A DNA stretch of 57,021 nt. Origin: a virus. This document shows positions 4,167-55,813 of this stretch, in pieces. The notes beneath the pieces are model-generated. The model had not been told where the DNA came from, searched no databases, and saw only the letters and a program-made list of their open reading frames with translations. Each line of letters begins with the position of its first letter. The stretch's first letter is position 1. Both the position numbers and the translations under genes were made by a program. The DNA is taken from IMG/VR virus record IMGVR_UViG_3300045988_085176. One strand, given 5' to 3'.

Positions 4167-4263
4167 ATATCACACGTCCTTTATCATAAAAATCAGGAGT
4201 CCGTGAGGAGGGCGGCGACGTGTACCAACCCTTGATCCCCACGTCCTCCATGGATATATTGTC

Positions 4264-7503: not shown

Positions 7504-9893
7504 GATTTCACCTCCCGGAACTGGAGACGCGCGCCAATGTACTGGCTTGAGATGCCTGAGCTTTGACTCGCATCGAAAAAGAATAGGCCAGCTATGGATG
7601 CATTTGTATAGCAACCGCTCACGTCAACTACAGACCAGCCTGCGCTCGAGTTTATGTAGTCTGGGATGTAGGTGGTAGCGCTACCACCACCGGTTGTATC
7701 AGGTAAGAGTGCCCATGGGAAAACGGAGCTAAATCCAAGCCCTTTAATCCAACCGGAGTTCGGAAGAGTAATACCAGAGGATGTGTAATTGGACGTGGTG
7801 TCATCAGCATAACTCTCGGGTTCTGTGCAGATATATGGAACTCTGTTGTTGACGTTGATTCCATCGATCCACTCAAAGACATTCCCCCACGGGTTCTCAA
7901 TCCAACGGTACTGAACCGCGGCAGTATTTATAAGACCTCCCGCCGCCCTTCCAGTATGGTAGACCATGGCGTCAGTCTCGCCGGTTTTGTGGACAGAGCT
8001 GTCGTTGACGATTCCCTGACCTATCTTCGCTTGGCTGTTAAAATCGGCGTATTCGACCAGATACAACAAATCATAAGCGCACCATGCGGCGAAGTCGTAG
8101 AGTTGGGCATTGGACGCAAAATTTTTTGCATAATTTCTAAACTCGGCTCGAGTTAATCCCGTCTTAGCCGGGGTATTAGAATAGCTACATAATGCTTGCC
8201 CGCCACTCTTATTTACTAAGTACCCCTCATATCGTGCAACATAGCTCTCGCTTCCTGGATGCAAAGAAAATCCATCGATTGGTCCATCCGCAATATAATA
8301 ACGAAAGATATTTCCACTCTTTTCTACTTTGTAGTAAAATTGCGGGATCTTGACGCATGTCGCAGATGAAGGAGATGTTCGATTGGCAGGATATACTCTC
8401 CCACTAGCGTCAATATCAACCTCCTCCATCCCCATCCACGGCATATAGCTGTCGAATGGTGAGGAGCCTGAGCCTGTCCCAACTGCGGGTACGGGCTCGG
8501 TTTTGATGTCCACAGTGACCAGCTTGTTGGGATCGTTGGCTTTGGTCAGACGGGTCAGGGCGGTGGATGGGTTGGAGCTGTCCCAGGAGACGCCGAAGAC
8601 GGAGGTGAGGGATTCGACGACAATTTTTTTCGAGTATCTAGCTTCAGAATAGTTTTTATCTCCTTCAAAGACGAAAGTTAAGAAAAAAATTTGATCTCCT
8701 GTCTCTTTTTTAGCTGTAATAATAAATATCTGTTGTTCGGTATCAACAGATGCATCAAAATATTCTTTTGCTACATTAGAATAAGAAAGAGAAACAGGTC
8801 CATGGAAGTCCCCAGAATATTTAATTGTTGCAGTTTTATTCTGGGCATCCAATACAATATTAGATGATGGAGAAAAATGGACAGCTTGAGTTTTCTTCCC
8901 AATCGTCCACGTCGCGTTTTTCGTCTCCGTAGTCCCATCCCACCATTGGTAGCCGGGCTTCGGTTGAAATCCCATAGTATAAGTCCCGGCGTTTGTTTGG
9001 TATGATGCCCCAACCAAAGTGAGTTCTTCTGTGTTAAGGTCGTTCCATTCTGCCATTTGTGCTTCGCCATTATAAGTAAGCGTACCCTTTTGGCTCGGCA
9101 CCACCGGAATGATAATCGCAAACTGCACCGCCACGCTCAGAGAGGCGCTGGCCGCCGTGTAGTTTGTCCCCTCGCTGGCCGATACCTGGATGGCCGTGTT
9201 GCCGGTCTCCACACCTGTTACTGTCAGGGTTGTCCCCTCCAGGGATGTTGTAGCTACGCCGGAGTTATCAGACTGTGCGGACAGAGTGCCGTCCCCCGTG
9301 TAGGTGACAGCCACCGCCTGAGATGTGGTGGAGGTATCCAGGCTCACAGATGCCGGGTCAAACGTGATGCTGGGGGTGGCCTTAGCAATAGACCACTGGA
9401 TATTCTTCGCCTCCGTGCTCCCGTCCGCCCACTTGTACTGCGCCGTGGGCGTGACCACCGCTGTATAGCTCCCGGCGTTCGTGCCGGACGTGTCACCGGA
9501 TAGGACCATTTTGTCTGCATCGTAGCCCGTCAGGGTGGGGCTCTGGGCTTGTCCATTGTATGTAAGACTCCCGGATACCGTGGGCACAGAGATGGTCCCA
9601 CGCTCCACAGTGATGGCCTGCACGGCGGTCTCTGTCACCCCGGCCTCGGTGTAGATGATCTCCACCTCACTCGTCCCCTCGGGCAGTGCTCCGCTGGGGG
9701 AGTAGGTCCAGCCGGTGGCCGTCAGGGTGGCCCCGTTGGAGTACGATGCCGTGACTACCATCCCAGCAGGGTCAAAGACCTCTCCGGGGAGATATGTGAT
9801 ATTGTCAGGCGGTGTGGTGATGGCAATGCTCTCCAGCTTGATGCCTTCGCCTCCTGCTCCGCCGCCAACCATTGTAAAAAATTTACTGCCCAT
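7500..9893 (-). CDS. Receptor-binding tail fibre: Ig-like/MBG-type repeats plus C-terminal lectin/FGE-like domain
   Basis: 797 aa. Repeated ..TYNG.AQ.....(S/Y).TNAG(S/T)YT.......(Y)(K/Q)W.DG(S/T)TE.KN..W.I.K units. C-terminus has YRWIENPWGNVFEWIDG. Confidence 0.7.
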   Translation of the reverse strand: MGSKFFTMVGGGAGGEGIKLESIAITTPPDNITYLPGEVFDPAGMVVTASYSNGATLTATGWTYSPSGALPEGTSEVEIIYTEAGVTETAVQAITVERGTISVPTVSGSLTYNGQAQSPTLTGYDADKMVLSGDTSGTNAGSYTAVVTPTAQYKWADGSTEAKNIQWSIAKATPSITFDPASVSLDTSTTSQAVAVTYTGDGTLSAQSDNSGVATTSLEGTTLTVTGVETGNTAIQVSASEGTNYTAASASLSVAVQFAIIIPVVPSQKGTLTYNGEAQMAEWNDLNTEELTLVGASYQTNAGTYTMGFQPKPGYQWWDGTTETKNATWTIGKKTQAVHFSPSSNIVLDAQNKTATIKYSGDFHGPVSLSYSNVAKEYFDASVDTEQQIFIITAKKETGDQIFFLTFVFEGDKNYSEARYSKKIVVESLTSVFGVSWDSSNPSTALTRLTKANDPNKLVTVDIKTEPVPAVGTGSGSSPFDSYMPWMGMEEVDIDASGRVYPANRTSPSSATCVKIPQFYYKVEKSGNIFRYYIADGPIDGFSLHPGSESYVARYEGYLVNKSGGQALCSYSNTPAKTGLTRAEFRNYAKNFASNAQLYDFAAWCAYDLLYLVEYADFNSQAKIGQGIVNDSSVHKTGETDAMVYHTGRAAGGLINTAAVQYRWIENPWGNVFEWIDGINVNNRVPYICTEPESYADDTTSNYTSSGITLPNSGWIKGLGFSSVFPWALLPDTTGGGSATTYIPDYINSSAGWSVVDVSGCYTNASIAGLFFFDASQSSGISSQYIGARLQFREVKS

Positions 9894-19529: not shown

Positions 19530-19556
19530 GGCACTTGGCACTGTGGCACTTGGCAC
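19530..19556 (-). promoter_or_regulatory. Doubled GTGCCAAGTGCC motif upstream of the TMP gene
   Basis: GGCACTTGGCAC at 19530-19541 and 19545-19556 (+ strand reading), 24 nt from the start codon. Confidence 0.8.
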
Positions 19557-19583
19557 TGAAAATATAAAGATCCCCGCTGCCTC

Positions 19584-19605
19584 CTTTATATTGAGATAGC
19601 GGGGA
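19584..19605. repeat. 22-bp inverted repeat, left copy (partner 20802-20823)
   Basis: CTTTATATTGAGATAGCGGGGA matches the reverse complement of 20802-20823 at 21 of 22 positions. Confidence 0.9.
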
Positions 19606-19639
19606 CTTCGATTTATTTAGTTATCTTTTCAAGATTTCC

Positions 19640-19680
19640 AAAAAATTTTACCCTCCGCCTATTTCTAAGCGGAGGGTAAA
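19640..19680 (-). terminator. Terminator of the membrane-protein moron
   Basis: TACCCTCCGC/GCGGAGGGTA hairpin followed on the - strand by AAATTTTTT. Confidence 0.7.
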
Positions 19681-19688
19681 TAAATTTA

Positions 19689-20138
19689 TTAAAGCCCAAT
19701 GGACATTCCCCAGAAAAATCCGACAATGAATTGCCATAGAAATCCAATAGCAAAAATCCAAATAACAATACGAACTAACAAAGGAATTTGCTTCCATGCG
19801 GACTTATTGTTTGTTTGTGTACCATTGTCATTTGTTCTGTCTGTTGCTACAACAACATTCGATATATAAGCTTCTATAACAGGCGTAATTCCCCAATTCG
19901 ATTTTATATAACATTTGATAAATATTTCATCCTGATCGGGGAAGGCCGAAAAATTCAACGTTTTGATTGCTTTCCGACCAACGCAAAACGAAATTGTGTG
20001 ATTTCCCTCTTCTACAAATAATTTTACACTTTTTCCGTTTTGAATTTTTGCAACCTCAGAAGAGTCTATTTTAATTATTATTCCACCCAATGCTCCAGCA
20101 CTTTTACTTTCTCTTTGTACTATTACAGGGCATCTCAT
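19689..20138 (-). CDS. Membrane-anchored hypothetical protein (moron)
   Basis: Start MRCPVIV with RBS GGGAGGGG. Soluble N-domain, C-terminal TMs IPLLVRIVIWIFAIGFLWQFIVGFFWGM. AT-rich. Confidence 0.65.
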   Translation of the reverse strand: MRCPVIVQRESKSAGALGGIIIKIDSSEVAKIQNGKSVKLFVEEGNHTISFCVGRKAIKTLNFSAFPDQDEIFIKCYIKSNWGITPVIEAYISNVVVATDRTNDNGTQTNNKSAWKQIPLLVRIVIWIFAIGFLWQFIVGFFWGMSIGL

Positions 20139-20372
20139 AAAATATCCCCTCCCCCCCAAATCTTACCATAATTCGAGGGAGGAAGCAATCAAAATCTCTG
20201 CTATCGCAATTAACTTAAGACATCGAATTTATTTTCGTCAAATCTCCATTTTCAGTTGACAAAAGAATTAACTTGTGATAAAGTTGAGAGATAATTTTTA
20301 AGACCATTTGAAAGCAGGGAAATATTATACTATTCACTCGCTAAGATTGCAAGATATTTTTTTCAAAATCGC

Positions 20373-20400
20373 TTGATTTTTTTTCCTAAAATACTATAAT
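20373..20400 (+). promoter_or_regulatory. Promoter of the candidate small RNA
   Basis: TTGATT, 16-nt spacer, TATAAT. Confidence 0.6.
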
Positions 20401-20406
20401 AAAAGT

Positions 20407-20522
20407 GTGGAAACCCTAAAGACGGTTGCCACAGTACATAAGCTACTCCATACATAGCCGGGGTGTCAGCCCCAACCACGCAGTGAGCCTTCTGTTTGCG
20501 GCAGACGGCTCACTTCTTTTTG
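20407..20522 (+). ncRNA. Candidate ~115-nt sRNA (antitoxin-like), promoter to terminator
   Basis: Bounded by the TATAAT promoter and the AGTGAGCC/GGCTCACT hairpin plus TCTTTTT. No credible ORF. Its 3' end overlaps the convergent small ORF. Confidence 0.45.
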
Positions 20523-20605
20523 TCTCGGAATTTATCCCACACCTGGATAATGATCCAGATGATAGAAACGATCCAAAACAAATTTTGAAGAGTTATGTAT
20601 ATCAC
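20510..20605 (-). CDS. Candidate small hydrophobic peptide (type I toxin-like); start uncertain
   Basis: ...LFWIVSIIWIIIQVWDKFRDKKK* preceded by GGGGAGGTG. In-frame GTG at 20605 or TTG at 20581. Confidence 0.35.
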   Translation of the reverse strand: MIYITLQNLFWIVSIIWIIIQVWDKFRDKKK

Positions 20606-20731
20606 CTCCCCAGGAAAATTTCCCGCGAGGGCTCTATACACGCCTCCATTCCGCACTCGCGGGATGTCAGGCAACCGTCCTTTTAACCGTCGCTGTCTCT
20701 CTCTATTGCGACAGCGGGTTTCCACGTTATC

Positions 20732-20760
20732 ATTATATACTCCATTTTTCCCGCTGTCAA
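20732..20760 (-). promoter_or_regulatory. Consensus promoter for the small-peptide mRNA
   Basis: On the - strand: TTGACA, 17-nt spacer, TATAAT. Confidence 0.65.
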
Positions 20761-20801
20761 ATTCTGTCGATATAATTTTTACAGAAATTCTTTTTTCAAA
20801 A

Positions 20802-20823
20802 TCTCCGCTATCTCAATATAAAG
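20802..20823. repeat. 22-bp inverted repeat, right copy
   Basis: TCTCCGCTATCTCAATATAAAG. A partial third copy, AAAATCTCTGCTATCGCAAT, lies at about 20188-20207. Confidence 0.9.
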
Positions 20824-20846
20824 TTTTCAAGGTACAAACCGGAGAA

Positions 20847-21263
20847 CTATCCGAATTTCTTTTGGGCAGATCTAGCCCAATTTCTGAAGAAAAGCTGTGC
20901 TTTCAAACGCTCGTTTTCAATCTCTTGACTTGATTCCAGCTTTGTCTTTTCTTCTCCTCTCATTGGATACGGCTCTGTTCTATAGGGAATAGGCTTCGTG
21001 CCCTTCTTTGCAAAAGCATGGAGAACTGGAGCTACATCACAGAAGGCTTCATAAATGTACATTCCCATCATGTGGGCCGCCGCATTTGTCCTTCTCCGAT
21101 TAAGCTTATCTGCCTCACGGAATCCCTCTACCATCCATACATCGCCATACCAATACTGTTCCCAAGTCATGCCGATGGACAGATAGTAGGGGCACTCCGC
21201 TTCAAATAGATCCGTGAAGGACTGTGGGCCTTTTACAGCTCCACAGTCACCTTCGCGTTTTTT
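20847..21263 (-). CDS. Tail assembly chaperone, -1 frameshift extension (gpT-like part of G-T fusion)
   Basis: The -1 frame is open from the slippery site into the MTWEQYWYGD... ORF. Position is between the chaperone and TMP genes. Confidence 0.7.
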   Translation of the reverse strand, partial: KKREGDCGAVKGPQSFTDLFEAECPYYLSIGMTWEQYWYGDVWMVEGFREADKLNRRRTNAAAHMMGMYIYEAFCDVAPVLHAFAKKGTKPIPYRTEPYPMRGEEKTKLESSQEIENERLKAQLFFRNWARSAQKKFG

Positions 21264-22164: not shown

Positions 22165-22191
22165 GGCACTTGGCACAAAGGCACTCGGCAC
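22165..22191 (-). promoter_or_regulatory. Doubled GTGCC(A/G)AGTGCC motif upstream of the major tail gene
   Basis: GGCACTTGGCAC at 22165-22176 and GGCACTCGGCAC at 22180-22191. Confidence 0.8.
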
Positions 22192-22203
22192 TGTCAGCCC
22201 TTT

Positions 22204-30763: not shown

Positions 30764-32398
30764 TTAAAACGGACGCCGGAATACCTCCACCTTGTTTCCT
30801 TCAAGTTGTTGAACATACTCAGCAAACATTGCCCAAGCATCAGGAACATCATCGTGCTTATTTTTACCTGCCATTGTATACCCGCAAAGGAAATTTAACA
30901 TTCTCCTGTATTCTTTATCCTTTTTTATGACAGAGTTATCCTTAAACAAAACACGGTCTTTGATAAATGGGCTGTTGACTATGATCCGTGTCTCTTTGTT
31001 TGATGTAGTATATTTTGTTGTTATTTTTGCGATTCCCCCGGATTCTTTCACTTCTTTTTGAACTTTTTCTGCAACTTTACCACCAGCGCTGTTACTTTCA
31101 AACTGGCCCATCTGAGCCTTGTGCTGAAGTAGTTTTGACACTAATCGCGCCTCTACAACCTCCGGATTGCTATTATCGCATACCACATCTTCGCAGTAGA
31201 AGTCATTCCCATATTGATAGCAGATCGGCATGACGCAGTAATCAGTGCCCTTGTCTTTCGTATCGCACACAAACAGAATTGCATCTGGTTTTCTATCAGG
31301 AAGCTCAAAGTACCTGCGCAGCTCATCCTCGCTATACAACTGACCCTCGCGCTCGATAGGCTGGTTCATATAGAGAGCACGCCAACTTGCATCGTCCATT
31401 ACTTCGCGTTGCTCATGATAAAATGCCGTAGTAAACCCAGCGTGGTTCCCGTAGTCAAAGTTACTCTCGTCATTTTCATCTAGTGCTGGCATGACAATAA
31501 ACTCTGCCCGGTTACTTTCCCCGTAGGACTGTTCCAATCGTCCTATAACATCGTGGATTGACCATCGAGTCGCAATATGAAGCTCCTTGCAATCTCCAAT
31601 TTTCCGCTGCCGCAAATCTGTTGCGTATAGATTCCAGAGTTTATCCATTCGTTCCTTCGACAGTGCACTCTCCAGACCATCGACCAGATCATCACAATAA
31701 AGCAGATTTTCAGCTCGGACCTTACCTGCGTTTCCTGACCCAACAGACGAGAACTCCAATGTTGCAAATCGCTTTCCCTTCTTCGGGTCTGTTCCAAGAT
31801 CAATCATCATATCCTGGGCGTTGGTCTTGACCACCTTGACTACCGGAAACACATCATTCCAAAGATAATCCCCCTGCGGGTCCATAATACGAATACACTC
31901 CTCATATACTCCGCGCAAAAATGCGTTCGAATGAGATCCCCCCAGGATTGGCTTTTCTGGGTTTCTCCCTCCAAGCCAGGTCAGAAAGAACAGAGCCAAT
32001 GTGGTCTTTCCCACTCCAGGGGGAAGAGAAATCGACAGCAAGTCTAGTTCGTTATCTGCCAATCGTTGCAACGCCTTTGCAACCCTATATAACTGCTTCC
32101 GTCTGGGCAAGTAGAACCTCTTTGAAGGTTCGCGGTTCCACTCAATATACCGACAGTGTGCGTCAAAATCATACGGTGCGTCAAACAGCAGGCTCCGCTT
32201 GTTCAGTTCGAACATACGGATGCTTTTTTGTTCTGTGGCGAATTTCGCAGACAGCCGTCGCACTTCCTTGTTCCGCTCATGCGCCAGCGTAAAATCTTCT
32301 GGCTCCAGCAAACGCAAGCTATCAAAGGCGTCATTCAGTGCAGACGGGTCAGACAAGTCCCTCTGAAACGCCTTCTTTACCAACTCTTGAATTTCCAT
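30764..32398 (-). CDS. terL: Terminase large subunit
   Basis: Start MEIQELV behind AGGAGG. Walker A PPGVGKTT, Walker B LLYCDDLV. C-terminal nuclease-type acidic motifs. Confidence 0.9.
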   Translation of the reverse strand: MEIQELVKKAFQRDLSDPSALNDAFDSLRLLEPEDFTLAHERNKEVRRLSAKFATEQKSIRMFELNKRSLLFDAPYDFDAHCRYIEWNREPSKRFYLPRRKQLYRVAKALQRLADNELDLLSISLPPGVGKTTLALFFLTWLGGRNPEKPILGGSHSNAFLRGVYEECIRIMDPQGDYLWNDVFPVVKVVKTNAQDMMIDLGTDPKKGKRFATLEFSSVGSGNAGKVRAENLLYCDDLVDGLESALSKERMDKLWNLYATDLRQRKIGDCKELHIATRWSIHDVIGRLEQSYGESNRAEFIVMPALDENDESNFDYGNHAGFTTAFYHEQREVMDDASWRALYMNQPIEREGQLYSEDELRRYFELPDRKPDAILFVCDTKDKGTDYCVMPICYQYGNDFYCEDVVCDNSNPEVVEARLVSKLLQHKAQMGQFESNSAGGKVAEKVQKEVKESGGIAKITTKYTTSNKETRIIVNSPFIKDRVLFKDNSVIKKDKEYRRMLNFLCGYTMAGKNKHDDVPDAWAMFAEYVQQLEGNKVEVFRRPF

Positions 32399-32430
32399 GA
32401 AAAAAGTGCCTCCTATCCCGCAAGATAAAA

Positions 32431-32473
32431 GGCACTTGGCACTGTTCGCTCCATCTGGAGAGGCACTTGGCAC
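32431..32473 (-). promoter_or_regulatory. Doubled GTGCCAAGTGCC motif upstream of terL
   Basis: GGCACTTGGCAC at 32431-32442 and 32462-32473. The proximal copy pairs with the SD region (32404-32411 with 32430-37). Confidence 0.8.
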
Positions 32474-32485
32474 TAAACTATAGTA

Positions 32486-32737
32486 TTACTTTAGTAATTC
32501 AAAAAGTATCTCTTCATTAAAATCAGGATTTTCATGTTTTATCAATTCTACTACATCAGCAATTATTTTATTTTTTGCTTCACTATCCCAAATTGATAGC
32601 TCATTTAATATCCTGTTCCTCCAGTTGCTATTTGTGAGGTAAAAATCTTCAATCCTCATAATAAGCGCAACATATGCATTTTTAAATGGAGTACATGGTT
32701 CTTCTCTTAATCTCATCAAATTTTCCAATGTTTTCAT
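32486..32737 (-). CDS. Hypothetical protein (AT-rich gene)
   Basis: Start MKTLENL behind AGGAGG; 83 aa. Markedly AT-rich. Confidence 0.55.
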   Translation of the reverse strand: MKTLENLMRLREEPCTPFKNAYVALIMRIEDFYLTNSNWRNRILNELSIWDSEAKNKIIADVVELIKHENPDFNEEILFELLK

Positions 32738-32751
32738 AAAAAACCTCCTAT

Positions 32752-32994
32752 TTAATCCTCCGCCGGTTCTGGGTACGGCATCCAGTGAGTTACTTTTGAT
32801 CCTGCAAATCGACCAGAGACCCACCCACAGGCAAATCCGTCATCTTCCCAAACCTCATAAAAACCGTTGTGCCATCTTGCCTGTGTCTCCCACACATATC
32901 TATGCTTATCCATCCAACTTTCAATCGTGATAAGAATTGGTTCCCCGTCCGGCGGCATCCTATCGGTGCATTTGATCCAGTCCATCTTTATCAC
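32752..32994 (-). CDS. DUF551-like protein
   Basis: W.KCTDRMPPDG...THWMPYPEP pattern. A paralog-like gene is at 38176-38469. Confidence 0.6.
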   Translation of the reverse strand: MIKMDWIKCTDRMPPDGEPILITIESWMDKHRYVWETQARWHNGFYEVWEDDGFACGWVSGRFAGSKVTHWMPYPEPAED

Positions 32995-33018
32995 CCTTTT
33001 TGTTTTACACAGGATTTT

Positions 33019-33339
33019 TCACTTTACAACATCCACTGCGCCCTTCAGCATATTGGCCGCCTTACGCATAAACCTGTTTTCTTCCAGATACTCCAATCCA
33101 ATAATCGTGATCTCTGGGCAAATCGGCTCCGTAATATGCCGCTTCATGTCTCCCAGGTTCTTCGTCACAACAATTCCCTTAATGTACCCGCTGTCCTGCA
33201 TCATAATCAAAATCTGTTCCCAACGCTCACGGGTCACACCCAGTCGAAACGGGCTGATCGTCTCAACATCAAACTCCTCACAGTCAAGTGCCGCTTCCAA
33301 GTACCTCAATATCCGATATATGACCTTGAAGTTGTTCAT
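33019..33339 (-). CDS. YjcQ-family protein
   Basis: 106 aa. ...MMQDSGYIKGI...ITIIGLEYLEENRFMRKA fits the YjcQ pattern. Confidence 0.55.
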   Translation of the reverse strand: MNNFKVIYRILRYLEAALDCEEFDVETISPFRLGVTRERWEQILIMMQDSGYIKGIVVTKNLGDMKRHITEPICPEITIIGLEYLEENRFMRKAANMLKGAVDVVK

Positions 33340-33370
33340 TGTTTCGCTCCTTTTTGTCTGCGGCGGATTT

Positions 33371-33466
33371 TTAGGCCCCTCTCCTTACCAGCACATACCA
33401 CTGACTTTTGCTAATACCCATCTGCTTACAGGCGGCCTCCACTGTGATGGAGCCGTCTTTTTGCAT
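33371..33466 (-). CDS. Mini HTH ORF (excisionase/MerR-type HTH_17-like), 31 aa
   Basis: MQKDGSITVEAACKQMGISKSQWYVLVRRGA. No obvious SD. May be a truncated remnant. Confidence 0.3.
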   Translation of the reverse strand: MQKDGSITVEAACKQMGISKSQWYVLVRRGA

Positions 33467-33479
33467 TTTGAAAAATTTT

Positions 33480-34007
33480 TTAGTTTGGCACATTTGCCAT
33501 CATTCGCATTAAATCTGTCCTATCCCACAGTTTAACGCCAAGTTTGTTTGCAAGCGTCCTTCCGTTATCAGAAAAATACATATTTGTGATGACAGCACAC
33601 CGTGTCGCCTTATACATGGGTGCTCCGGCGTATACTTCCTGTACCGACTTTACCCCCACATTCTTTGCATATCTCTTGCATTGAATCGCATATCGCTCAC
33701 CATCTTTGCTTGCAAGAACATCTACGCCATAATCCCCGCTTGCTTTTGTCATCTGCACATTGGAAAAACCGTTTGCCCTCAGAAGCGCCGCTACATATCG
33801 TTCAAATTCCTCTCCGCTCATTATATCAATTTCTGACATATCTACTTGTCTGACATTTTTCCCGCTCGACACAACGCTTACAATTACAGCCGCACCGACT
33901 GCAACAAGTATCAGTATGACCCACGGATATTCAGACAACAAATATAACGGAACCCCAATAAGGATAATCAGCATTATCAAACCAGTAGTGGATTTCCTGC
34001 CCCGCAT
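33480..34007 (-). CDS. Membrane-anchored Mrr-cat-type restriction endonuclease-like protein
   Basis: Two N-terminal TMs, then EEFERYVAALLRANGF...GDYGVDVLA...YAIQCKRY (D...QxK core). Confidence 0.7.
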   Translation of the reverse strand: MRGRKSTTGLIMLIILIGVPLYLLSEYPWVILILVAVGAAVIVSVVSSGKNVRQVDMSEIDIMSGEEFERYVAALLRANGFSNVQMTKASGDYGVDVLASKDGERYAIQCKRYAKNVGVKSVQEVYAGAPMYKATRCAVITNMYFSDNGRTLANKLGVKLWDRTDLMRMMANVPN

Positions 34008-34009
34008 GA

Positions 34010-34771
34010 TTATCCCTCCCCCAAGATAGGCTCATGAACTCCCTTTACCCAATTCATATCCCCGTATTTATACATTCCCCGGTAAAGCGGCTCATTTTTG
34101 ATAATGCTCCGAACGCTCGTATTCTGAAACTTCGTTCCTTTGCGTGTCCGATAGCCAAGATCATTCAGCTTATCGGCAATCGTCAGCATCGGGGTTCCCT
34201 TCTTATGTTCCGCAAACACAAACTCCACAATGGGCCGTTCCTCTTCGTTGATAACAAGCCGCCCATTATCGACCTTGTACCCGTAGGCAGTACGACCGCC
34301 ACTATATCCGCCAGCGGCTGCCTTAATCCTTCTTCCGTTTCCCGTTCGGAGCGCAATGTTCTTTCTCTCCTGCTCCGCTACAAACAGCATCAGCGCACGG
34401 TAAATATTTGCAAAATCTCCCTCTGGGAACACCTCTTGTGTACTCAGCAGCTTAATGTTCCGCTTTTCGAGGACATATAGATAGTAGAAATACAGTTTGG
34501 TATCCCTCGCTACCCGGTCACTCTTGAACGCAATCACGGCCTCAAACGGAGGATTAGAAATGTCCTCGTCATACAATATCTTGTTTAGCTCTGGCCGTTC
34601 ATCGCTCGCCCCGCTTTCTTCGTCACAGAACCACTTAACAATGTTATACCCATTATCATTCGCATAGGCCAGTATTTTTTCCTTCTGCGCCTCAATGCCG
34701 TACTTGTCATCCGCAGCCTGAGCCTCCGTGCTTACCCGAATATACCCAATGGCGTTTTTGAACTCCATCAT
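34010..34771 (-). CDS. Serine recombinase (resolvase catalytic domain plus partial recombinase domain)
   Basis: Start MMEFKNAIGYIRVST (catalytic Ser context), VIAFKSDRVARD. 253 aa, so it lacks the large C-terminal Zn-ribbon/coiled coil. Confidence 0.75.
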   Translation of the reverse strand: MMEFKNAIGYIRVSTEAQAADDKYGIEAQKEKILAYANDNGYNIVKWFCDEESGASDERPELNKILYDEDISNPPFEAVIAFKSDRVARDTKLYFYYLYVLEKRNIKLLSTQEVFPEGDFANIYRALMLFVAEQERKNIALRTGNGRRIKAAAGGYSGGRTAYGYKVDNGRLVINEEERPIVEFVFAEHKKGTPMLTIADKLNDLGYRTRKGTKFQNTSVRSIIKNEPLYRGMYKYGDMNWVKGVHEPILGEG

Positions 34772-34798
34772 ATCTTTCACCCCTTGCTTGTTGTACTT

Positions 34799-34827
34799 AT
34801 TGTACCATTTGTTTTTGCAAATGTCAA
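34799..34827 (-). promoter_or_regulatory. Promoter of the recombinase operon
   Basis: On the - strand: TTGACA, 17-nt spacer, TACAAT. Confidence 0.65.
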
Positions 34828-35002
34828 TAAGTTTTTGCAACAAGCCTTTTTTCTGTTTTCCGTGGTGATGGGATTAACCTGCCTACCTTATTCCGGAAAA
34901 TATCCCCCTCCAGTGTACCAATAACGACCCCATTTGACCCAATCCAGGCCCACTCTCTCCTCCGCATTGCAAAAAATCTTGAAATTATTTTATATTAACT
35001 CA

Positions 35003-35031
35003 TTGACAAGTAAATACAACTATGCTATCAT
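35003..35031 (+). promoter_or_regulatory. Divergent promoter of the + strand cassette
   Basis: TTGACA, 17-nt spacer, TATCAT. Confidence 0.6.
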
Positions 35032-35083
35032 ACAATCACAGCAAGGGAAACCGCGCTGAATCTACCGGGCAGGAGGTAACGAA

Positions 35084-35215
35084 ATGGAGACTGATAGCAT
35101 GACCCAGACCGAATTAGCATCCTATCTTGAAACCCTGGCGAAGCTGGTAGAGGCTACGGCCAAGGACGCGCAGGACGCGGCCCGCATTATCCGGGAAGCC
35201 ATCCCAAAGCAGTGA
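35084..35215 (+). CDS. Small helical protein, 43 aa
   Basis: METDSMTQTELASYLETLAKLVEATAKDAQDAARIIREAIPKQ with RBS AGGAGG, followed by two hairpins. Confidence 0.45.
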   Translation: METDSMTQTELASYLETLAKLVEATAKDAQDAARIIREAIPKQ

Positions 35216-35373
35216 CAAAAAGATAGCCGCCTCACCCTGAACAAGTAAGCGGCTATCTAAGACCCAGCGGAGGCGGTTAGAGCCTGCCATCTGGCCGCCT
35301 CCACTATAACACAACCGGCAGGGAAAAGCAATAGCCGGAGGGGGCCGCCCTCCATGACAAGGAGGAAAACAGA

Positions 35374-35571
35374 ATGATTAGTATTACGATCTATCTTGAT
35401 GGAAAAACCAGTGAGTGCGGCTATAAATACGTCGTTCAACGCGATTGCATGGCTTGGACGGCCTACCGCACGGACGGCGGATTCCGCCGTTTCCTGGCTC
35501 TCTACGGCCTCAAAATCAACCCCAAATATACACAGCTCCACGATATGCGGGCCGCTGGAAATGGCCGATAA
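35374..35571 (+). CDS. Hypothetical protein
   Basis: 65 aa with RBS AAGGAGG. Confidence 0.55.
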   Translation: MISITIYLDGKTSECGYKYVVQRDCMAWTAYRTDGGFRRFLALYGLKINPKYTQLHDMRAAGNGR

Positions 35572-35594
35572 AATCGGGTGAGGAGGGAAAAACA

Positions 35595-36008
35595 ATGGAA
35601 ATGCTACACATCAGCAAAGCGGACTTTGACCGAATCGGAGCCGATTATAAAGGCGTTTATATGGACTATCACGGAACACACCCACAGCGGAAGGGCCGCC
35701 GGGTTGCTTTTCTCCCCGGCCACGGAACGACGCTTTTCACGGAAGGAATCCACTTTATCGTTGATGGCGATTGTTCGCACTTGCCCATTCTTTGCAAGGA
35801 AAACGCGGAGGAGGGCGCGGCGTACCAGTTCGGCGGCAGCGTCCTGTATGTCAAAAGAATTTACCGCATCAGCGAGGAGTACGCGAACGATAACAGCTTG
35901 CTATATCTCGATCGCGTAGAAACCAGTATAGGAGATTTTGCACTCCCTGGAAGTGACACAATCAGCACAAACAAGAACTGGAAAATTTACAACGCGGCGC
36001 GGGCTTGA
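35595..36008 (+). CDS. Hypothetical protein
   Basis: Start MEMLHISK behind GAGGAGGG; 137 aa. Confidence 0.55.
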   Translation: MEMLHISKADFDRIGADYKGVYMDYHGTHPQRKGRRVAFLPGHGTTLFTEGIHFIVDGDCSHLPILCKENAEEGAAYQFGGSVLYVKRIYRISEEYANDNSLLYLDRVETSIGDFALPGSDTISTNKNWKIYNAARA

Positions 36009-36037
36009 CCCGCCCGCCGGAGAATGGAGGAAATAAA

Positions 36038-36256
36038 ATGCTTACAGTATACGACTTGACCCGCAACCAGCTTGACGAGCTAAAAGCAATCTACCTTGAC
36101 CAGCACTTACAAGAAACTTGCGACGAGTGCGCCAGCTATGGAGAAATAACCAGCGCAAGCGAGATTGTCCCGGATTGGCTTATATTTGACACATACGCTG
36201 GGACGCTTTTCTCCCCTGGTGATTTCTTTTGCGGGGAGGAGGTGACCCCCGCTTGA
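36038..36256 (+). CDS. Hypothetical protein
   Basis: Start MLTVYDL behind GGAGG; 72 aa. Confidence 0.5.
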   Translation: MLTVYDLTRNQLDELKAIYLDQHLQETCDECASYGEITSASEIVPDWLIFDTYAGTLFSPGDFFCGEEVTPA

Positions 36257-36371
36257 TTATCCTGTTTATTTTGGCTCTTCCGATCATGATTATCTGGGAG
36301 ACGGCAAAAAAATCTTGACTGCCCCGTACGGGCGCGATACAATCAATACACAAAAATTAGGAGGTTGCGCC

Positions 36372-36560
36372 ATGAAACCCTATTACTTCCCGAACTCTGG
36401 CTATGTTGACGTTATTTTCGGGAGCCAGTCCCCCGTGTGCATGGACCGCGCAGAGGTTGACCGCCTCTCCCGCGAGGACGGCGGATGGGAAAACATCTGG
36501 GAGCAGGTCCACGAGGCCAGCGCCGCAGAAATTGAGGAATTCGGAGTATATGATAGCTGA
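36372..36560 (+). CDS. Hypothetical protein
   Basis: Start MKPYYFP behind AGGAGG; 62 aa. Confidence 0.5.
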   Translation: MKPYYFPNSGYVDVIFGSQSPVCMDRAEVDRLSREDGGWENIWEQVHEASAAEIEEFGVYDS

Positions 36561-36577
36561 TAGCATGCACACTACAA

Positions 36578-36613
36578 CCCGCCCGGGGCTTCCCTGGGGC
36601 GGGTTTTCTTTTT
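36578..36613 (+). terminator. Terminator of the + strand cassette
   Basis: CCCGCCC/GGGCGGG stem followed by TTTTCTTTTT. Confidence 0.7.
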
Positions 36614-36886
36614 CCCATGTCCCTATGCCCTCCAGTAGCTTCCCGCCGCTTGTGTGGCCTCCTACGGTCAGCAGGCGGCATTTTTGCGCCCGTGTCCAGC
36701 GGGGCAGGGGAGAGGCAAAAACACAAAACCTCCGTAAAGGCCATTTACAGGCCCATATAGCAGTTTTAATGTCTGGCGGTGTCTATATATTCCAATGCCA
36801 CAAAACTCCGTACAGAGGACCGCACAGCGCCACACAAGGCATAAAGCAACCCCGGCCCACTCCATCAGGAGAAAGCCGGGGTATTG

Positions 36887-37066
36887 TCATTTGTTACGGG
36901 CCAGCGATAGGACGGCGCAGCGCTCTTTGTCTGCGTCCCACCAGGCGCAACGGGAGCCGGGGCACAAATACATATCGTTCAAAGTGATACCACCGCTTGC
37001 TCGGCATCCACTCATAAGCAGAGGGCAAAATTTATAGTCGATAACTCCTGACGGATTTTCATCCAT
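36887..37066 (-). CDS. Small Cys-rich protein
   Basis: Start MDENPSGV behind GGAGG; 59 aa with 5 Cys. Terminator hairpin CCCCGGC/GCCGGGG follows. Confidence 0.5.
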   Translation of the reverse strand: MDENPSGVIDYKFCPLLMSGCRASGGITLNDMYLCPGSRCAWWDADKERCAVLSLARNK

Positions 37067-37140
37067 AGTCGCAGCCTCCAAATAGTCGTTTCATAGTCCT
37101 TTGACTTCCAAAAAGTTCCTGAAATAGTCGCTGATAGTCG
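37034..37140 (-). repeat. Array of six CGACTAT (one GGACTAT) direct repeats just downstream of terS
   Basis: ATAGTC(G/C) on the + strand at 37034, 37065, 37082, 37093, 37124 and 37134. Confidence 0.85.
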
Positions 37141-37141
37141 T

Positions 37142-37666
37142 TTACTCCTCCACCACTACAGACCCAGCGATCCGTTCCTCAAGCTGCTTTTGGTCGGGAG
37201 AGTCGCCGAGGGGTTGATTTGGTGTCAGGACGACCTCTTGCTGATCCTTCATGCCGAAATAGTTCTTTGCCCTAAAAATGTAAACAACGGGGTTAATTTT
37301 GCCCTCTGTGACCATTTCAGACTCAAAAGATGCAATAAATCCTTTGGCTTTTTTAATGAGGTCCATGCGCACAGAGCTGCACCCAATCCCATTTTCCCAG
37401 TTCCAAACCGTCTGCTTGATAGTCCCTAATGCCATGACCATCTTCTCAACAGTAGGCAACTGTCCTGTTTTTTGGCAGGTGTCAAAGAACTCATATAGTC
37501 GCTCTCTGCACTCTTCATCGGATTTAACAATGGGTCTATCATAGAACATCATACAGTTACCCATGCAGCGGGATATATCTTCTGCCTTTGCTCCAGATAT
37601 GACGCTTGGAAAGTTCTCTTTGCCTCCACGGCCCCTTGCCTTTACGATAGTTTTCCCTTGCTCCAT
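37142..37666 (-). CDS. terS: Terminase small subunit
   Basis: Start MEQGKTIV. YEFFDTCQKTGQLPTVEKMVMALG (HTH-like) and IFRAKNYFGMKDQQEV resemble TerS proteins. Confidence 0.7.
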   Translation of the reverse strand: MEQGKTIVKARGRGGKENFPSVISGAKAEDISRCMGNCMMFYDRPIVKSDEECRERLYEFFDTCQKTGQLPTVEKMVMALGTIKQTVWNWENGIGCSSVRMDLIKKAKGFIASFESEMVTEGKINPVVYIFRAKNYFGMKDQQEVVLTPNQPLGDSPDQKQLEERIAGSVVVEE

Positions 37667-38469: not shown

Positions 38470-38671
38470 GCTGTCCGCCCTCCTCGCCGTGGACTTTCTT
38501 TTTCATCTCTTTTGCGGCTCCTTCGCCCACGCCAAGAGCATACGAATAAATGAGCCAACAAACAAAACTCATCACCCAGCAGAAAACCAAAACAGGCATC
38601 GGTACTATAAACCATCCATTTGCTTTGACAATAGACAGGATGATTCCCAGGAAAAGGAGCAGTTTAATCAT
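38453..38671 (-). CDS. Small membrane protein
   Basis: Start MIKLLLFLGIILSIV; two TM segments. Overlaps the upstream stop. Confidence 0.5.
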   Translation of the reverse strand: MIKLLLFLGIILSIVKANGWFIVPMPVLVFCWVMSFVCWLIYSYALGVGEGAAKEMKKKVHGEEGGQHERVD

Positions 38672-39104
38672 CGTCGTCGCCCTCCCCGTCTTGGATGGAG
38701 CTCTCCATCTCAATCAAAAACGCCGCATTGCAGGCCAGATGCCATAGATGAGGCAGGCCGCTTTCTTGATCGCACTTCTCACCCTTGAGATAGGCCAGCC
38801 AGTGCCGGTAGAGTGCGTCCCTGTAACGCTGCGGCTCCACCTGCCGCCAGTTCTCCGGGTCGTGATACTTTTCGTTTCCGTACATGCGGACCGCTGTCAC
38901 AGCATCAATCAGGCTGACGGGAGTGATCGTAGGGCGAGGCTTTCCTGCGTCAGCTTTGGCCTGCTGGTCCTTGTTTGCATCTTTTGGGTCCTGAAATCCA
39001 CAAACTGGACATTCAGAATTAGGAAATTTATTGGGGTTTTCTTCTTCATGTGCGCAAATTGGACAAATCCATGAATCCCCATTATCTATCCAGTGCTTAC
39101 TCAT
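38664..39104 (-). CDS. Zn-ribbon plus dATP/dGTP diphosphohydrolase-like (DUF5664-type) domain protein
   Basis: CPIC...CPVC N-terminus. The C-terminal segment YGNEKYHDPENW...DALYRHW...DQESGLPHLWHLACNAAFL fits that family pattern. Confidence 0.5.
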   Translation of the reverse strand: MSKHWIDNGDSWICPICAHEEENPNKFPNSECPVCGFQDPKDANKDQQAKADAGKPRPTITPVSLIDAVTAVRMYGNEKYHDPENWRQVEPQRYRDALYRHWLAYLKGEKCDQESGLPHLWHLACNAAFLIEMESSIQDGEGDDDD

Positions 39105-42859: not shown

Positions 42860-43172
42860 CTTTCAACGCCTCCAATCTCTTCCCCTGTCTGTCCCTCGCC
42901 ACTGGGGTTATAGGGCGACCACAATTGGGGCAGTAGTGCATATTTCCAGATACATCAATAGGCCCTTCAAAAGGTCCATAAAACTGAACCTCTCCAATTG
43001 CTAAACCTGCGTCTTTGCAAGCTTCGCACCCAGGCCACACCTTCTCCACCTGCTCCCTACTGACTGGGCGGAGGGCGGCGAGGGCCAGCGTAAATGCGTC
43101 CCTGATTGCCGATTTTCCAGGATACATCTCCCTGGCTGTCATCAGAATCTCAACCGCTTCTTCCCGCGTCAT
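42843..43172 (-). CDS. Hypothetical Zn-ribbon protein
   Basis: 109 aa. Contains PGCEACKD...YCPNCGRP. Confidence 0.5.
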   Translation of the reverse strand: MTREEAVEILMTAREMYPGKSAIRDAFTLALAALRPVSREQVEKVWPGCEACKDAGLAIGEVQFYGPFEGPIDVSGNMHYCPNCGRPITPVARDRQGKRLEALKDGPEQ

Positions 43173-43543
43173 TCCATCCCCTCCAGCCTCTCCATCTCCT
43201 CCGCGCTCAGAATCGGTGCGCGGGTGTTCCAGGCTGAAATTGCCTCAACCTGAGTATTGAACCTTTTTACAGCCCTGCCGCAGCAAGAACTATCAACGCA
43301 TTGTGGGATATATTCTTTTTTCCGATACTCAAAATACTCTTTCCCACTTGGATAACTAATGCATCGAATGATTCTTGCTCCTTTCGGAACCTCTTTTTTA
43401 GTTTCAGCATATCTTGGCTGAGCCTCAACCTCATGTACAACCGCATCATTTCCGCAGAACGGACACGGCATCAGCACCCCCGCATCCGTTAGCCGCTGGG
43501 CTACCTCTTTGTTGCCGAGCAAAGCTAATTTGATGTCATCCAT
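43169..43543 (-). CDS. lar: Lar-family restriction alleviation protein
   Basis: LMPCPFCGNDAVVHEVE ... VEAISAWNTRAP matches the Lar family pattern. Confidence 0.6.
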   Translation of the reverse strand: MDDIKLALLGNKEVAQRLTDAGVLMPCPFCGNDAVVHEVEAQPRYAETKKEVPKGARIIRCISYPSGKEYFEYRKKEYIPQCVDSSCCGRAVKRFNTQVEAISAWNTRAPILSAEEMERLEGME

Positions 43544-55713: not shown

Positions 55714-55813
55714 AAATCCCCACCCGGCGCTACCAACACCAGGCAGGGAAGGGGGGCAGAAGCTATGGTCGGCAATCTGCCCTTCTATTTTATCAGAATA
55801 GGAGGCGTTGTCA

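Follow-up and report, generated by a model that had tools for sequence, protein, structure and literature searches.

A probable ancestral and hypervariable accessory slot between the terminase genes of temperate gut Oscillospirales phages

Introduction

What lies between the two terminase genes of a phage when they are not neighbours, and how did it come to be there? The question is raised by the IMG/VR virus record IMGVR_UViG_3300045988_085176, a DNA stretch of 57,021 nt analysed here at its full length (hereafter, the window), in which a gene resembling terS, for the small terminase subunit (nt 37142–37666, - strand), stands 4.7 kb apart from terL, for the large subunit (nt 30764–32398, - strand). 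A first-pass annotation had rightly described the intervening region as a - strand unit, i.e., in the sense of terL, followed by a cassette of five open reading frames (ORFs) on the + strand, and had read the whole as an island that splits terS from terL. Based on the comparison with related loci, we propose instead, with a probability of about 0.65, that the region is an ancestral, fixed-position and hypervariable accessory slot, provided with a conserved scaffold and an autoregulated divergent control, in a family of tailed phages that are temperate and infect gut Oscillospirales.

The window is a complete prophage-like element, with the late region and the majority of the genes on the - strand. 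A perfect 99-nt direct repeat at its ends (nt 1–99 and 56923–57021), which includes a tRNA 3' end and adjoins the tyrosine integrase gene already noticed in the annotation (nt 55808–56926), represents the putative att sites or a circular overlap. A search with terL retrieved 80 loci from IMG/VR and 65 loci from genomes. The latter belong to Ruminococcaceae, Acutalibacteraceae, Oscillospiraceae and Flavonifractor, among others, and the hosts are therefore gut Oscillospirales. The relatives are mainly metagenomic contigs, many of them from one data set (3300045988), and the closest isolated phage is Clostridium phage Maintenon, with a terL identity of 45%. No match was obtained by megablast of the region against GenBank phages, and no description of this terS-terL slot arrangement was found in the literature.

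Results

Position and variability of the gap between terS and terL

Relatives with adjoining terS and terL, which an island splitting the two genes would call for, were not found. Wherever a terS homologue could be located (54/54 loci), it lies 2.2–9.4 kb upstream of terL, and neither a terS adjoining terL nor an empty site occurs in any of them (0/54). In Maintenon, a gap of 2.65 kb between the genes annotated as terS and terL holds two tRNAs and about twelve small ORFs, of which two are antisense. The separation of the two genes is therefore ancestral and not due to an inserted island. As for the assignment of terS, which delimits the variable slot on its upstream side, the gene of the window matches GP3_package with 27.0 bits (cut-off 29.4) and PHROG 606 'terminase small subunit' at 6e-7, both weak matches, while its homologue in Maintenon also matches Phage_terminase and Terminase_5.

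Gene clustering of the gaps yielded 209 clusters in 55 loci. The two loci L001 and L002 have a terL 99.5–100% identical to that of the window, yet they carry different recombinases and different cargo. Since the relatives do not all share one arrangement, and gene content differs even at this level of terL identity, the hotspot character suggested in the annotation stands. Identity of terS is moreover independent of that of terL, with 99.5% for terS and 77.6% for terL in L025, and 45% and 97%, respectively, in L004; recombination therefore breaks inside the gap.

Directly after the terS stop codon, and extending into the next ORF, an array of five copies of the heptamer CGACTAT was found (nt 37034–37140, - strand). 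The window holds 10 copies vs 4.1 expected, five of them in this array, and the copies inside the ORF that follows terS encode Asp-Tyr. Most relatives with a terS 42–100% identical have 3–8 copies at the matching place, and the array is kept even where the N-terminal part of terS differs. We regard it as a candidate pac or terS-binding site. The record of Dulem virus 39 is circular and re-oriented, thus uninformative on genome ends. The last gene of the g104-terS unit is m64, a small Cys-rich ORF (nt 36887–37066, - strand; 59 aa from the ATG), homologues of which (41–100% identity) lie downstream of terS in most loci, with codon-periodic substitutions (0.238/0.109/0.104).

The annotation had considered a hitchhiking mobile or invertible module, comparable to those of Gin and Hin and moved by its own small recombinase. 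Such an explanation would agree with a serine recombinase gene adjoining an oppositely oriented cassette and with the mosaic base composition, which was confirmed (e.g., a GC content of 0.29 in the ORF g83 described below vs 0.49 in the window). However, no empty site is found in 54 relatives, the recombinase gene lies in the middle of the region rather than at an edge, and a single orientation was observed: p43, the leader gene of the cassette, is antisense to terL in 21/21 loci, and p137 and p81 likewise in every locus having them. Inverted or direct repeats flanking the cassette or the promoters were limited to short pairs at chance level, and the 12-nt inverted repeat at nt 34822/34997 corresponds to the two -35 regions. 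A 16-nt direct repeat (nt 34940/36847) was rejected as an excision site, being at chance level (~5 expected in 6 kb, an estimate) and absent from other loci. A perfect 14-nt inverted repeat (nt 37019/37295) was rejected as an inversion site; its presence is coincidental because its arms belong to the terS type and to the m64 type, which assort independently. Finally, a 28-nt inverted repeat (nt 19584/20796) was rejected as a target of the recombinase, as no inversion was seen in 72 related loci and the repeat marks the borders of another slot. An excisable or invertible module is thus largely refuted, and we consider it very improbable. For annotation purposes, a recombinase and foreign-looking genes between the terminase genes do not alone mark an insertion.

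The conserved scaffold

By blastn against the relatives, three segments, here termed anchors A, B and C, were found to be common to the loci almost irrespective of their cargo. Anchor A (nt 35003–35331, + strand) comprises the promoter P(+), the 5' untranslated region (UTR), the p43 gene and a structured 3' spacer, and shows a conservation of 96–99% across nt 35030–35110; the blastn segment common to the relatives starts inside it (nt 35017–35331). The leader gene p43 (nt 35084–35215, + strand) codes for 43 aa and has a variability by codon position of 0.012/0.014/0.148; it is a genuine gene, strongly constrained by purifying selection. The variability of its 5'UTR (0.025) is lower than that of the synonymous sites. 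Anchor B is an intergenic element (nt 36234–36350, + strand) with a predicted internal promoter TTGACT-17-TACAAT (nt 36315–36343) and a column conservation of 82–93% in 33 loci.

Anchor C is a non-coding zone where the two strands converge (nt 36578–36886), with an identity of 80–89% in almost all relatives, whatever their cargo; the segment shared by blastn runs to nt 36959 (nt 36578–36959) and takes in the 3' end of m64. The terminator of the cassette, a GC-rich hairpin followed by a T-run (nt 36575–36610, + strand), a second conserved hairpin with a T-run (about nt 36642–36690) and a hairpin after the m64 stop codon (nt 36846–36880) are convergent terminator hairpins with compatible substitutions, and RNAalifold returned local hairpins only. 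The ORF-free stretch of 270 bp seen after the terminator in the first-pass annotation (nt 36614–36886) was confirmed and proved to be conserved (~85% among 23 distinct relatives). It is truly non-coding, because its substitutions lack a 3-nt periodicity (variability by phase 0.156/0.158/0.141) and 1–2-nt indels occur. No Rfam match was found in the region, either at the gathering threshold on the window or at E<=1 on nt 34700–37200. The promoters, which had been attributed to the island as its own, belong together with p43, an element upstream of the - strand unit and the anchors A, B and C to a conserved backbone and not to the cargo.

The divergent control region

The back-to-back promoters of the annotation were both recovered as matches to 11 of the 12 consensus positions with a TG-extended -10 box, namely P(-), TTGACA-17-TACAAT (nt 34827–34799, - strand), and P(+), TTGACA-17-TATCAT (nt 35003–35031, + strand). 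Near-consensus promoters of that quality number eight in 57 kb, P(+) and P(-) among them. The divergent control region (nt 34799–34975) includes P(-) and three copies of the repeat TTGCAAAAA (nt 34812–20, 34832–40 and 34967–75), which flank the promoters or lie within them; the three copies stand inside 165 bp, and the window has 5 copies in all vs 0.9 expected.

The repeats differ among the loci according to the first gene of the sense unit. Those of the type TTGCAAAAA accompany the 253-aa recombinase found in the window, TGTATCA/TGATACA repeats accompany the type-2 recombinase shared by L050 and L002, the latter in other respects nearly the same as the window, CACTnnAAAGTG repeats go with the helix-turn-helix (HTH) protein c35 of the HTH_3 family and CAACAAACGTTG repeats with the HTH protein c13; repeats of a further sequence, TTACCGTAAT, were found in L201 and L206. 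This joint change of first-gene type and of the repeats at both promoters points to a divergent switch under autoregulation. That operator-like repeats are exchanged at two divergent promoters within the packaging region is a new observation.

A conserved upstream element (CUE) of ~80 nt (nt 34846–34922, - strand), also a new observation, abuts the -35 box of P(-) and consists of the blocks CC..GGGGGATAT, GGTTAGTCC, ACCAC and AAAAnAnAAAAAG. It heads the unit directed towards terL in nearly all subclades, with either a recombinase or an HTH protein as first gene product. A structured RNA was rejected, as RNAalifold gave no consensus fold, and so was a small ORF over the CUE, the frame of which, by inspection, is not kept between loci.

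The serine recombinase upstream of terL

The first sense gene of the window codes for a serine recombinase of 253 aa (nt 34010–34771, - strand), with matches to Resolvase (4e-25), Recombinase (7.5e-10) and PHROG 95 'integrase' (4e-66), and with a YIRVST motif that includes the active-site Ser. Homologues at E<=1e-10 number 1913, and the best 120 of them are nearly all 250–290 aa long and contain only PF00239 and PF07508; a truncated pseudogene was ruled out by such a large and length-conserved family.

Using a hidden Markov model (HMM) built from the slot recombinases, an ORF of this kind was detected upstream of terL and on the same strand in 57 of 101 loci, its end being 60–3055 nt from terL (median 1245). 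It is present in 9/9 loci at >=90% terL identity and in 7/18 at 30–45%, the lowest terL identity among loci with a positioned recombinase being 37%; elsewhere in those ~20-kb loci, the HMM search found just one further recombinase ORF. The fixed position and the length-conserved family do not fit the extra, hitchhiking recombinase of the first-pass annotation. Six or more sequence types are found at this place, five of them small resolvase/invertase types (~200 aa) and the other the 253-aa type, and the catalytic serine motif is intact in all of them, so that these enzymes probably also recombine DNA. Two subclades have no recombinase and a small HTH protein at that position. In the prophages L153, L223 and L225, a recombinase of the 253-aa type occupies the equivalent position, in the order replication genes, GP3_package gene, small genes, 1–4 antisense genes, recombinase, 1–2 genes, terL and portal. 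Judging from these comparisons, the recombinase is a family feature, position-locked and replaceable, which is a new observation. Separately, one subfamily is also found outside phages: a homologue of the 253-aa recombinase (75% identity) with two small ORFs lies in chromosomal DNA of non-phage character (L155, nt 8001–9298), flanked by genes for a rhamnosidase and a polysaccharide deacetylase, and has a sequence resembling the CUE upstream. This locus is perhaps an element in its own right, or else what is minimally left of one.

A recombinase locked between pac/terS and terL would be explained if the enzyme and the control region acted on the phage DNA itself, by multimer resolution or cyclisation. 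In P1, Cre/lox cyclises terminally redundant DNA near pac. Compatible with such a role are the strand and position of the gene, kept down to 37% terL identity in spite of the several enzyme types, the catalytic Ser motif intact in each type, the distance of ~2.2 kb from the recombinase gene to the CGACTAT array and the multi-copy repeats that adjoin the gene, as in res. However, the two subclades with the HTH protein have the same packaging genes and no recombinase, the CUE is present also where the recombinase is missing, no dyad-symmetric crossover site was found, and small resolvase-type enzymes normally require supercoiled substrates. A role in DNA processing is, on balance, quite unlikely.

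The remainder of the sense unit

The other - strand genes listed in the annotation were likewise all found in place. Downstream of the recombinase gene there are, all on the - strand, a 2TM-Mrr_cat nuclease of 175 aa (nt 33480–34007; Mrr_cat 7e-32), with two N-terminal hydrophobic helices, an HTH protein of 40 aa, or mini-HTH (nt 33371–33493), YjcQ (nt 33019–33339; 7e-23), DUF551 (nt 32752–32985; 3e-12) and g83, an AT-rich ORF of 83 aa (nt 32486–32737), for which no homologue was found in the 80 loci compared.

The C-terminus of the L004 recombinase consists of the same 36 residues as the mini-HTH of the window, which is therefore what remains of the C-terminal end of a small recombinase since displaced. 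L002 has a different recombinase, yet the last 45 nt of the recombinase gene of the window are kept before the Mrr-HTH-YjcQ block, which is 99% identical in L002 and the window. Replacement of the recombinase in place is indicated by both the L004-type tail and this 45-nt remnant.

In the relatives, sense-strand genes of the slot include HNH-like, GIY-YIG-like, RtcB and HTH genes. An RtcB RNA ligase gene directly upstream of terL was observed in L021, in L027–L040 (about nt 8690–9892) and in PP511791.1 (nt 58459–59664). A repair of tRNA against anticodon nucleases is hinted at, because the RtcB-bearing phages also have tRNAs near terL.

The antisense cassette and the nature of the cargo

Each of the five + strand ORFs is preceded by a ribosome-binding site (RBS), in agreement with the cassette proposed in the annotation. 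After p43, a first slot for cargo holds p65 (nt 35374–35571, 65 aa), p137 (nt 35595–36008, 137 aa) and p72 (nt 36038–36256, 72 aa), all sporadic among the relatives, and a second slot holds p62 (nt 36372–36560, 62 aa), an acidic ORFan with a homologue in only 4 of 80 loci. Acidic products, with their isoelectric points, are p72 (4.05), p62 (4.11) and p43 (4.56). No match was found for any of the five proteins in Pfam, PHROGs and PADLOC. For p137, only 85 homologues were retrieved, none of them named; its AlphaFold model is confident (pLDDT 91.2), and a search of the fold against PDB and BFVD found no neighbour (best E-values 0.66 and 0.077, respectively). The antisense cassettes of the relatives carry other ORFans.

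Because the + strand proteins match no family, and the slot of the relatives holds ORFans, nuclease-like genes, RtcB and HTH genes, the cargo most likely has accessory, non-structural functions. The antisense cassette would most likely serve early host takeover or counter-defence, and the sense strand would carry selfish or nuclease genes.

The main alternative for the cargo is a protection of the lysogen, with the region as a hotspot for defence or superinfection exclusion, expressed from the prophage, and with the cassette and the membrane-anchored Mrr nuclease as lysogenic-conversion genes that guard against other phages. The cassette has indeed the anatomy of a moron (own promoter, terminator, antisense orientation, differing GC), its fixed position and high turnover recall the P2/P4 hotspots, the antisense cassette of one relative holds an FtsK-like ATPase and GP88, and the Mrr_cat domain matches in PADLOC the nuclease domains of ZorD (C-terminus), PDC-S02 and type IV restriction enzymes (mREase_IV). 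This nuclease domain is, however, the only PADLOC match; the nine other slot proteins have none and no complete defence system was recognised, so that the defence function put forward in the annotation was not borne out. In addition, the proteins of 43–137 aa are unlike most defence effectors, and the Mrr nuclease is encoded on the strand of the late genes, outside the antisense cassette. Exclusion by the lysogen is accordingly rather unlikely in our view.

The downstream border and the late-gene motif

At the other side, the slot ends in front of terL with an element (nt 32404–32475, - strand) that contains the paired 13-mer AGTGCCAAGTGCC, a hairpin over the RBS of terL and a U-run. By blastn, homology to most of the close relatives compared stops exactly at nt 32475, i.e., at the first copy of AGTGCCAAGTGCC. 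In the window, the paired 13-mer occurs only directly before terL (nt 32404–32482), the portal gene (nt 28979–29034), gene 22135 (nt 22165–22192) and the tape-measure gene (nt 19530–19557), always on the - strand; base pairing with the RBS region involves the second copy or its tail, and the U-run comes next. In 62 of 78 related loci the motif is found ahead of terL, with a variable hairpin sequence, and it has no Rfam match. The stop of homology at nt 32475 and the motif shared with other late genes indicate that the slot is sharp-bordered and that terL opens a separately controlled late regulon. The AGTGCCAAGTGCC element is a candidate for a protein-dependent antitermination or translation switch of the late genes.

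Other variable slots and genes of the window

The interval that separates terL from the portal gene (nt 29019–30763) is a second accessory slot, with a tRNA-Met (nt 29234–29307), a second tRNA recognised by Rfam only (nt 29397–29467), a tRNA-Arg (nt 30328–30403), a PD-(D/E)XK endonuclease gene (nt 29555–30007, + strand) having its own predicted 11/12 promoter at nt 29504, and a further predicted 11/12 promoter at nt 30738 (- strand). Another variable slot, the third, separates the tail chaperone gene from the tape-measure gene (nt 19559–20850) and contains an AT-rich ORF of 156 aa with a hydrophobic C-terminus. Three copies of the 28-nt repeat mentioned above stand there at cassette borders (nt 19584–19611, inverted; about nt 20183–20210 and nt 20796–20823, direct), and an extra 585-bp insert is present in the window, with a perfect 12/12 promoter match (nt 20760, - strand). 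A full-length RAGATH-31 (nt 4196–4249, - strand) was identified by Rfam with 83 bits vs a gathering score of 72. Upstream of terS, two - strand genes code for a protein with a dATP/dGTP diphosphohydrolase N-terminal domain (nt 38664–39104; 1.6e-25) and for a Lar-type restriction-alleviation protein (nt 43169–43543; 3e-7), both candidates for further counter-restriction or nucleotide-pool genes.

Discussion

We propose that the scaffold of the slot comprises the two sigma-70-type promoters, the ~80-nt CUE, p43, the anchors A, B and C with their terminators and the late-gene motif before terL, and that the genes between these elements would be swapped among related phages by recombination at the anchors and sometimes inside genes. 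In the simplest reading, the product of the first sense gene, the recombinase in the window and a Cro/CI-type HTH protein in some relatives, would bind operators at both promoters. Upon entry of naked DNA, both units would be transcribed in a burst and later be kept at a low, autoregulated level, as in anti-CRISPR/Aca operons or in Tn3 res/resolvase. The sense unit would stop short of terL, at the hairpin and U-run, except when late-gene control acts, and the cargo would most likely serve host takeover, counter-defence or exclusion, and not virion assembly.

A variant of this model assigns more to the regulator. The recombinase, or its replacement, would repress the divergent pair as a second genetic switch and also recombine the DNA beside pac, for cyclisation in the manner of Cre/lox or for multimer resolution. 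The CUE would be its DNA site or a part of cos/pac, and the AGTGCCAAGTGCC hairpins would gate the terL, portal and tail genes as a new kind of protein-dependent antitermination or translation switch. The two subclades living without a recombinase weigh against a switch that is at the same time a packaging helper, and we deem this variant unlikely.

Several points weigh against the accessory slot as outlined here. Both promoters are predicted, as matches to the consensus only, and the annotation of terS is weak. That the recombinase binds the operators is proposed from their co-variation, and a linkage between promoter and gene would give an equal pattern. For the recombinases, the search for a substrate site identified none. 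No known anti-defence family is matched by the + strand proteins, and their role in counter-defence is putative. Finally, the counts of loci are not phylogenetically independent, because many relatives are contigs of data set 3300045988.

With these reservations, a sharply bordered plasticity slot, delimited by terS and the CGACTAT array on one side and by position 32475 on the other, is now defined in abundant and barely studied phages of gut Oscillospirales. It offers a natural library of small ORFan proteins behind a strong, probably autoregulated promoter and is thus a place to seek new counter-defence or host-takeover functions. The linkage between serine recombinase and terL is long-standing and, as far as we know and could find, apparently undescribed in the literature, and raises the question of whether such recombinases act as regulators or as packaging helpers.

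Comparison with known systems

With respect to the large serine integrases (A118, TP901-1, Bxb1), the 253-aa recombinase has a similar catalytic domain (1e-9 with TP901-1), and its residues 147–252 can be aligned with the A118 recombinase domain. Unlike them, it stops in or just after this domain, having neither zinc ribbon nor coiled coil, its family is of ~250–290 aa, and the phage integrates by a tyrosine integrase.

The morons of lambdoid phages (Juhala/Hendrix) are reportedly autonomous units of promoter, gene and terminator between late genes. Similarly, the cassette has, by sequence consensus, its own sigma-70-type promoter and intrinsic terminator, lies among packaging genes, differs in GC and varies in presence among the relatives. 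In contrast to morons, it comprises several genes, with a leader gene and non-coding anchors that are conserved, and it faces a divergent sense unit, apparently under common regulation; the slot itself is ancestral and never empty. T4-type phages reportedly have hyperplastic regions in which promoter/stem-loop (PeSL) cassettes are mobile (Arbiol, Comeau, Krisch); also here, short conserved promoters and hairpins bracket variable ORFans and resemble recombination anchors, but the phage is temperate and its three anchors (A, B and C) occur once each and are mutually dissimilar, with no repeated unit.

Fixed-position defence hotspots were reportedly described in P2-like prophages and P4 satellites by Rousset et al. 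in 2022. Common traits are a locus of changing content that keeps its place between conserved phage genes and a rapid turnover in near-identical genomes, whereas the slot presented here has no recognisable complete defence system and carries for the most part tiny ORFans, recombinases and homing-endonuclease-like genes.

Strong autoregulated promoters are a feature of both anti-CRISPR/Aca operons and the Tn3/gamma-delta res-resolvase system. The slot differs from both in having no anti-CRISPR/Aca match and no transposase, in a binding that is inferred, and in a regulator divergent from the cargo. It resembles both in its promoters, overlapped by repeats that track the adjacent HTH or recombinase gene; as in Tn3 tnpA-res-tnpR, these promoters are divergent, and as in anti-CRISPR/Aca operons, the proteins encoded downstream are small, variable and in some cases acidic.

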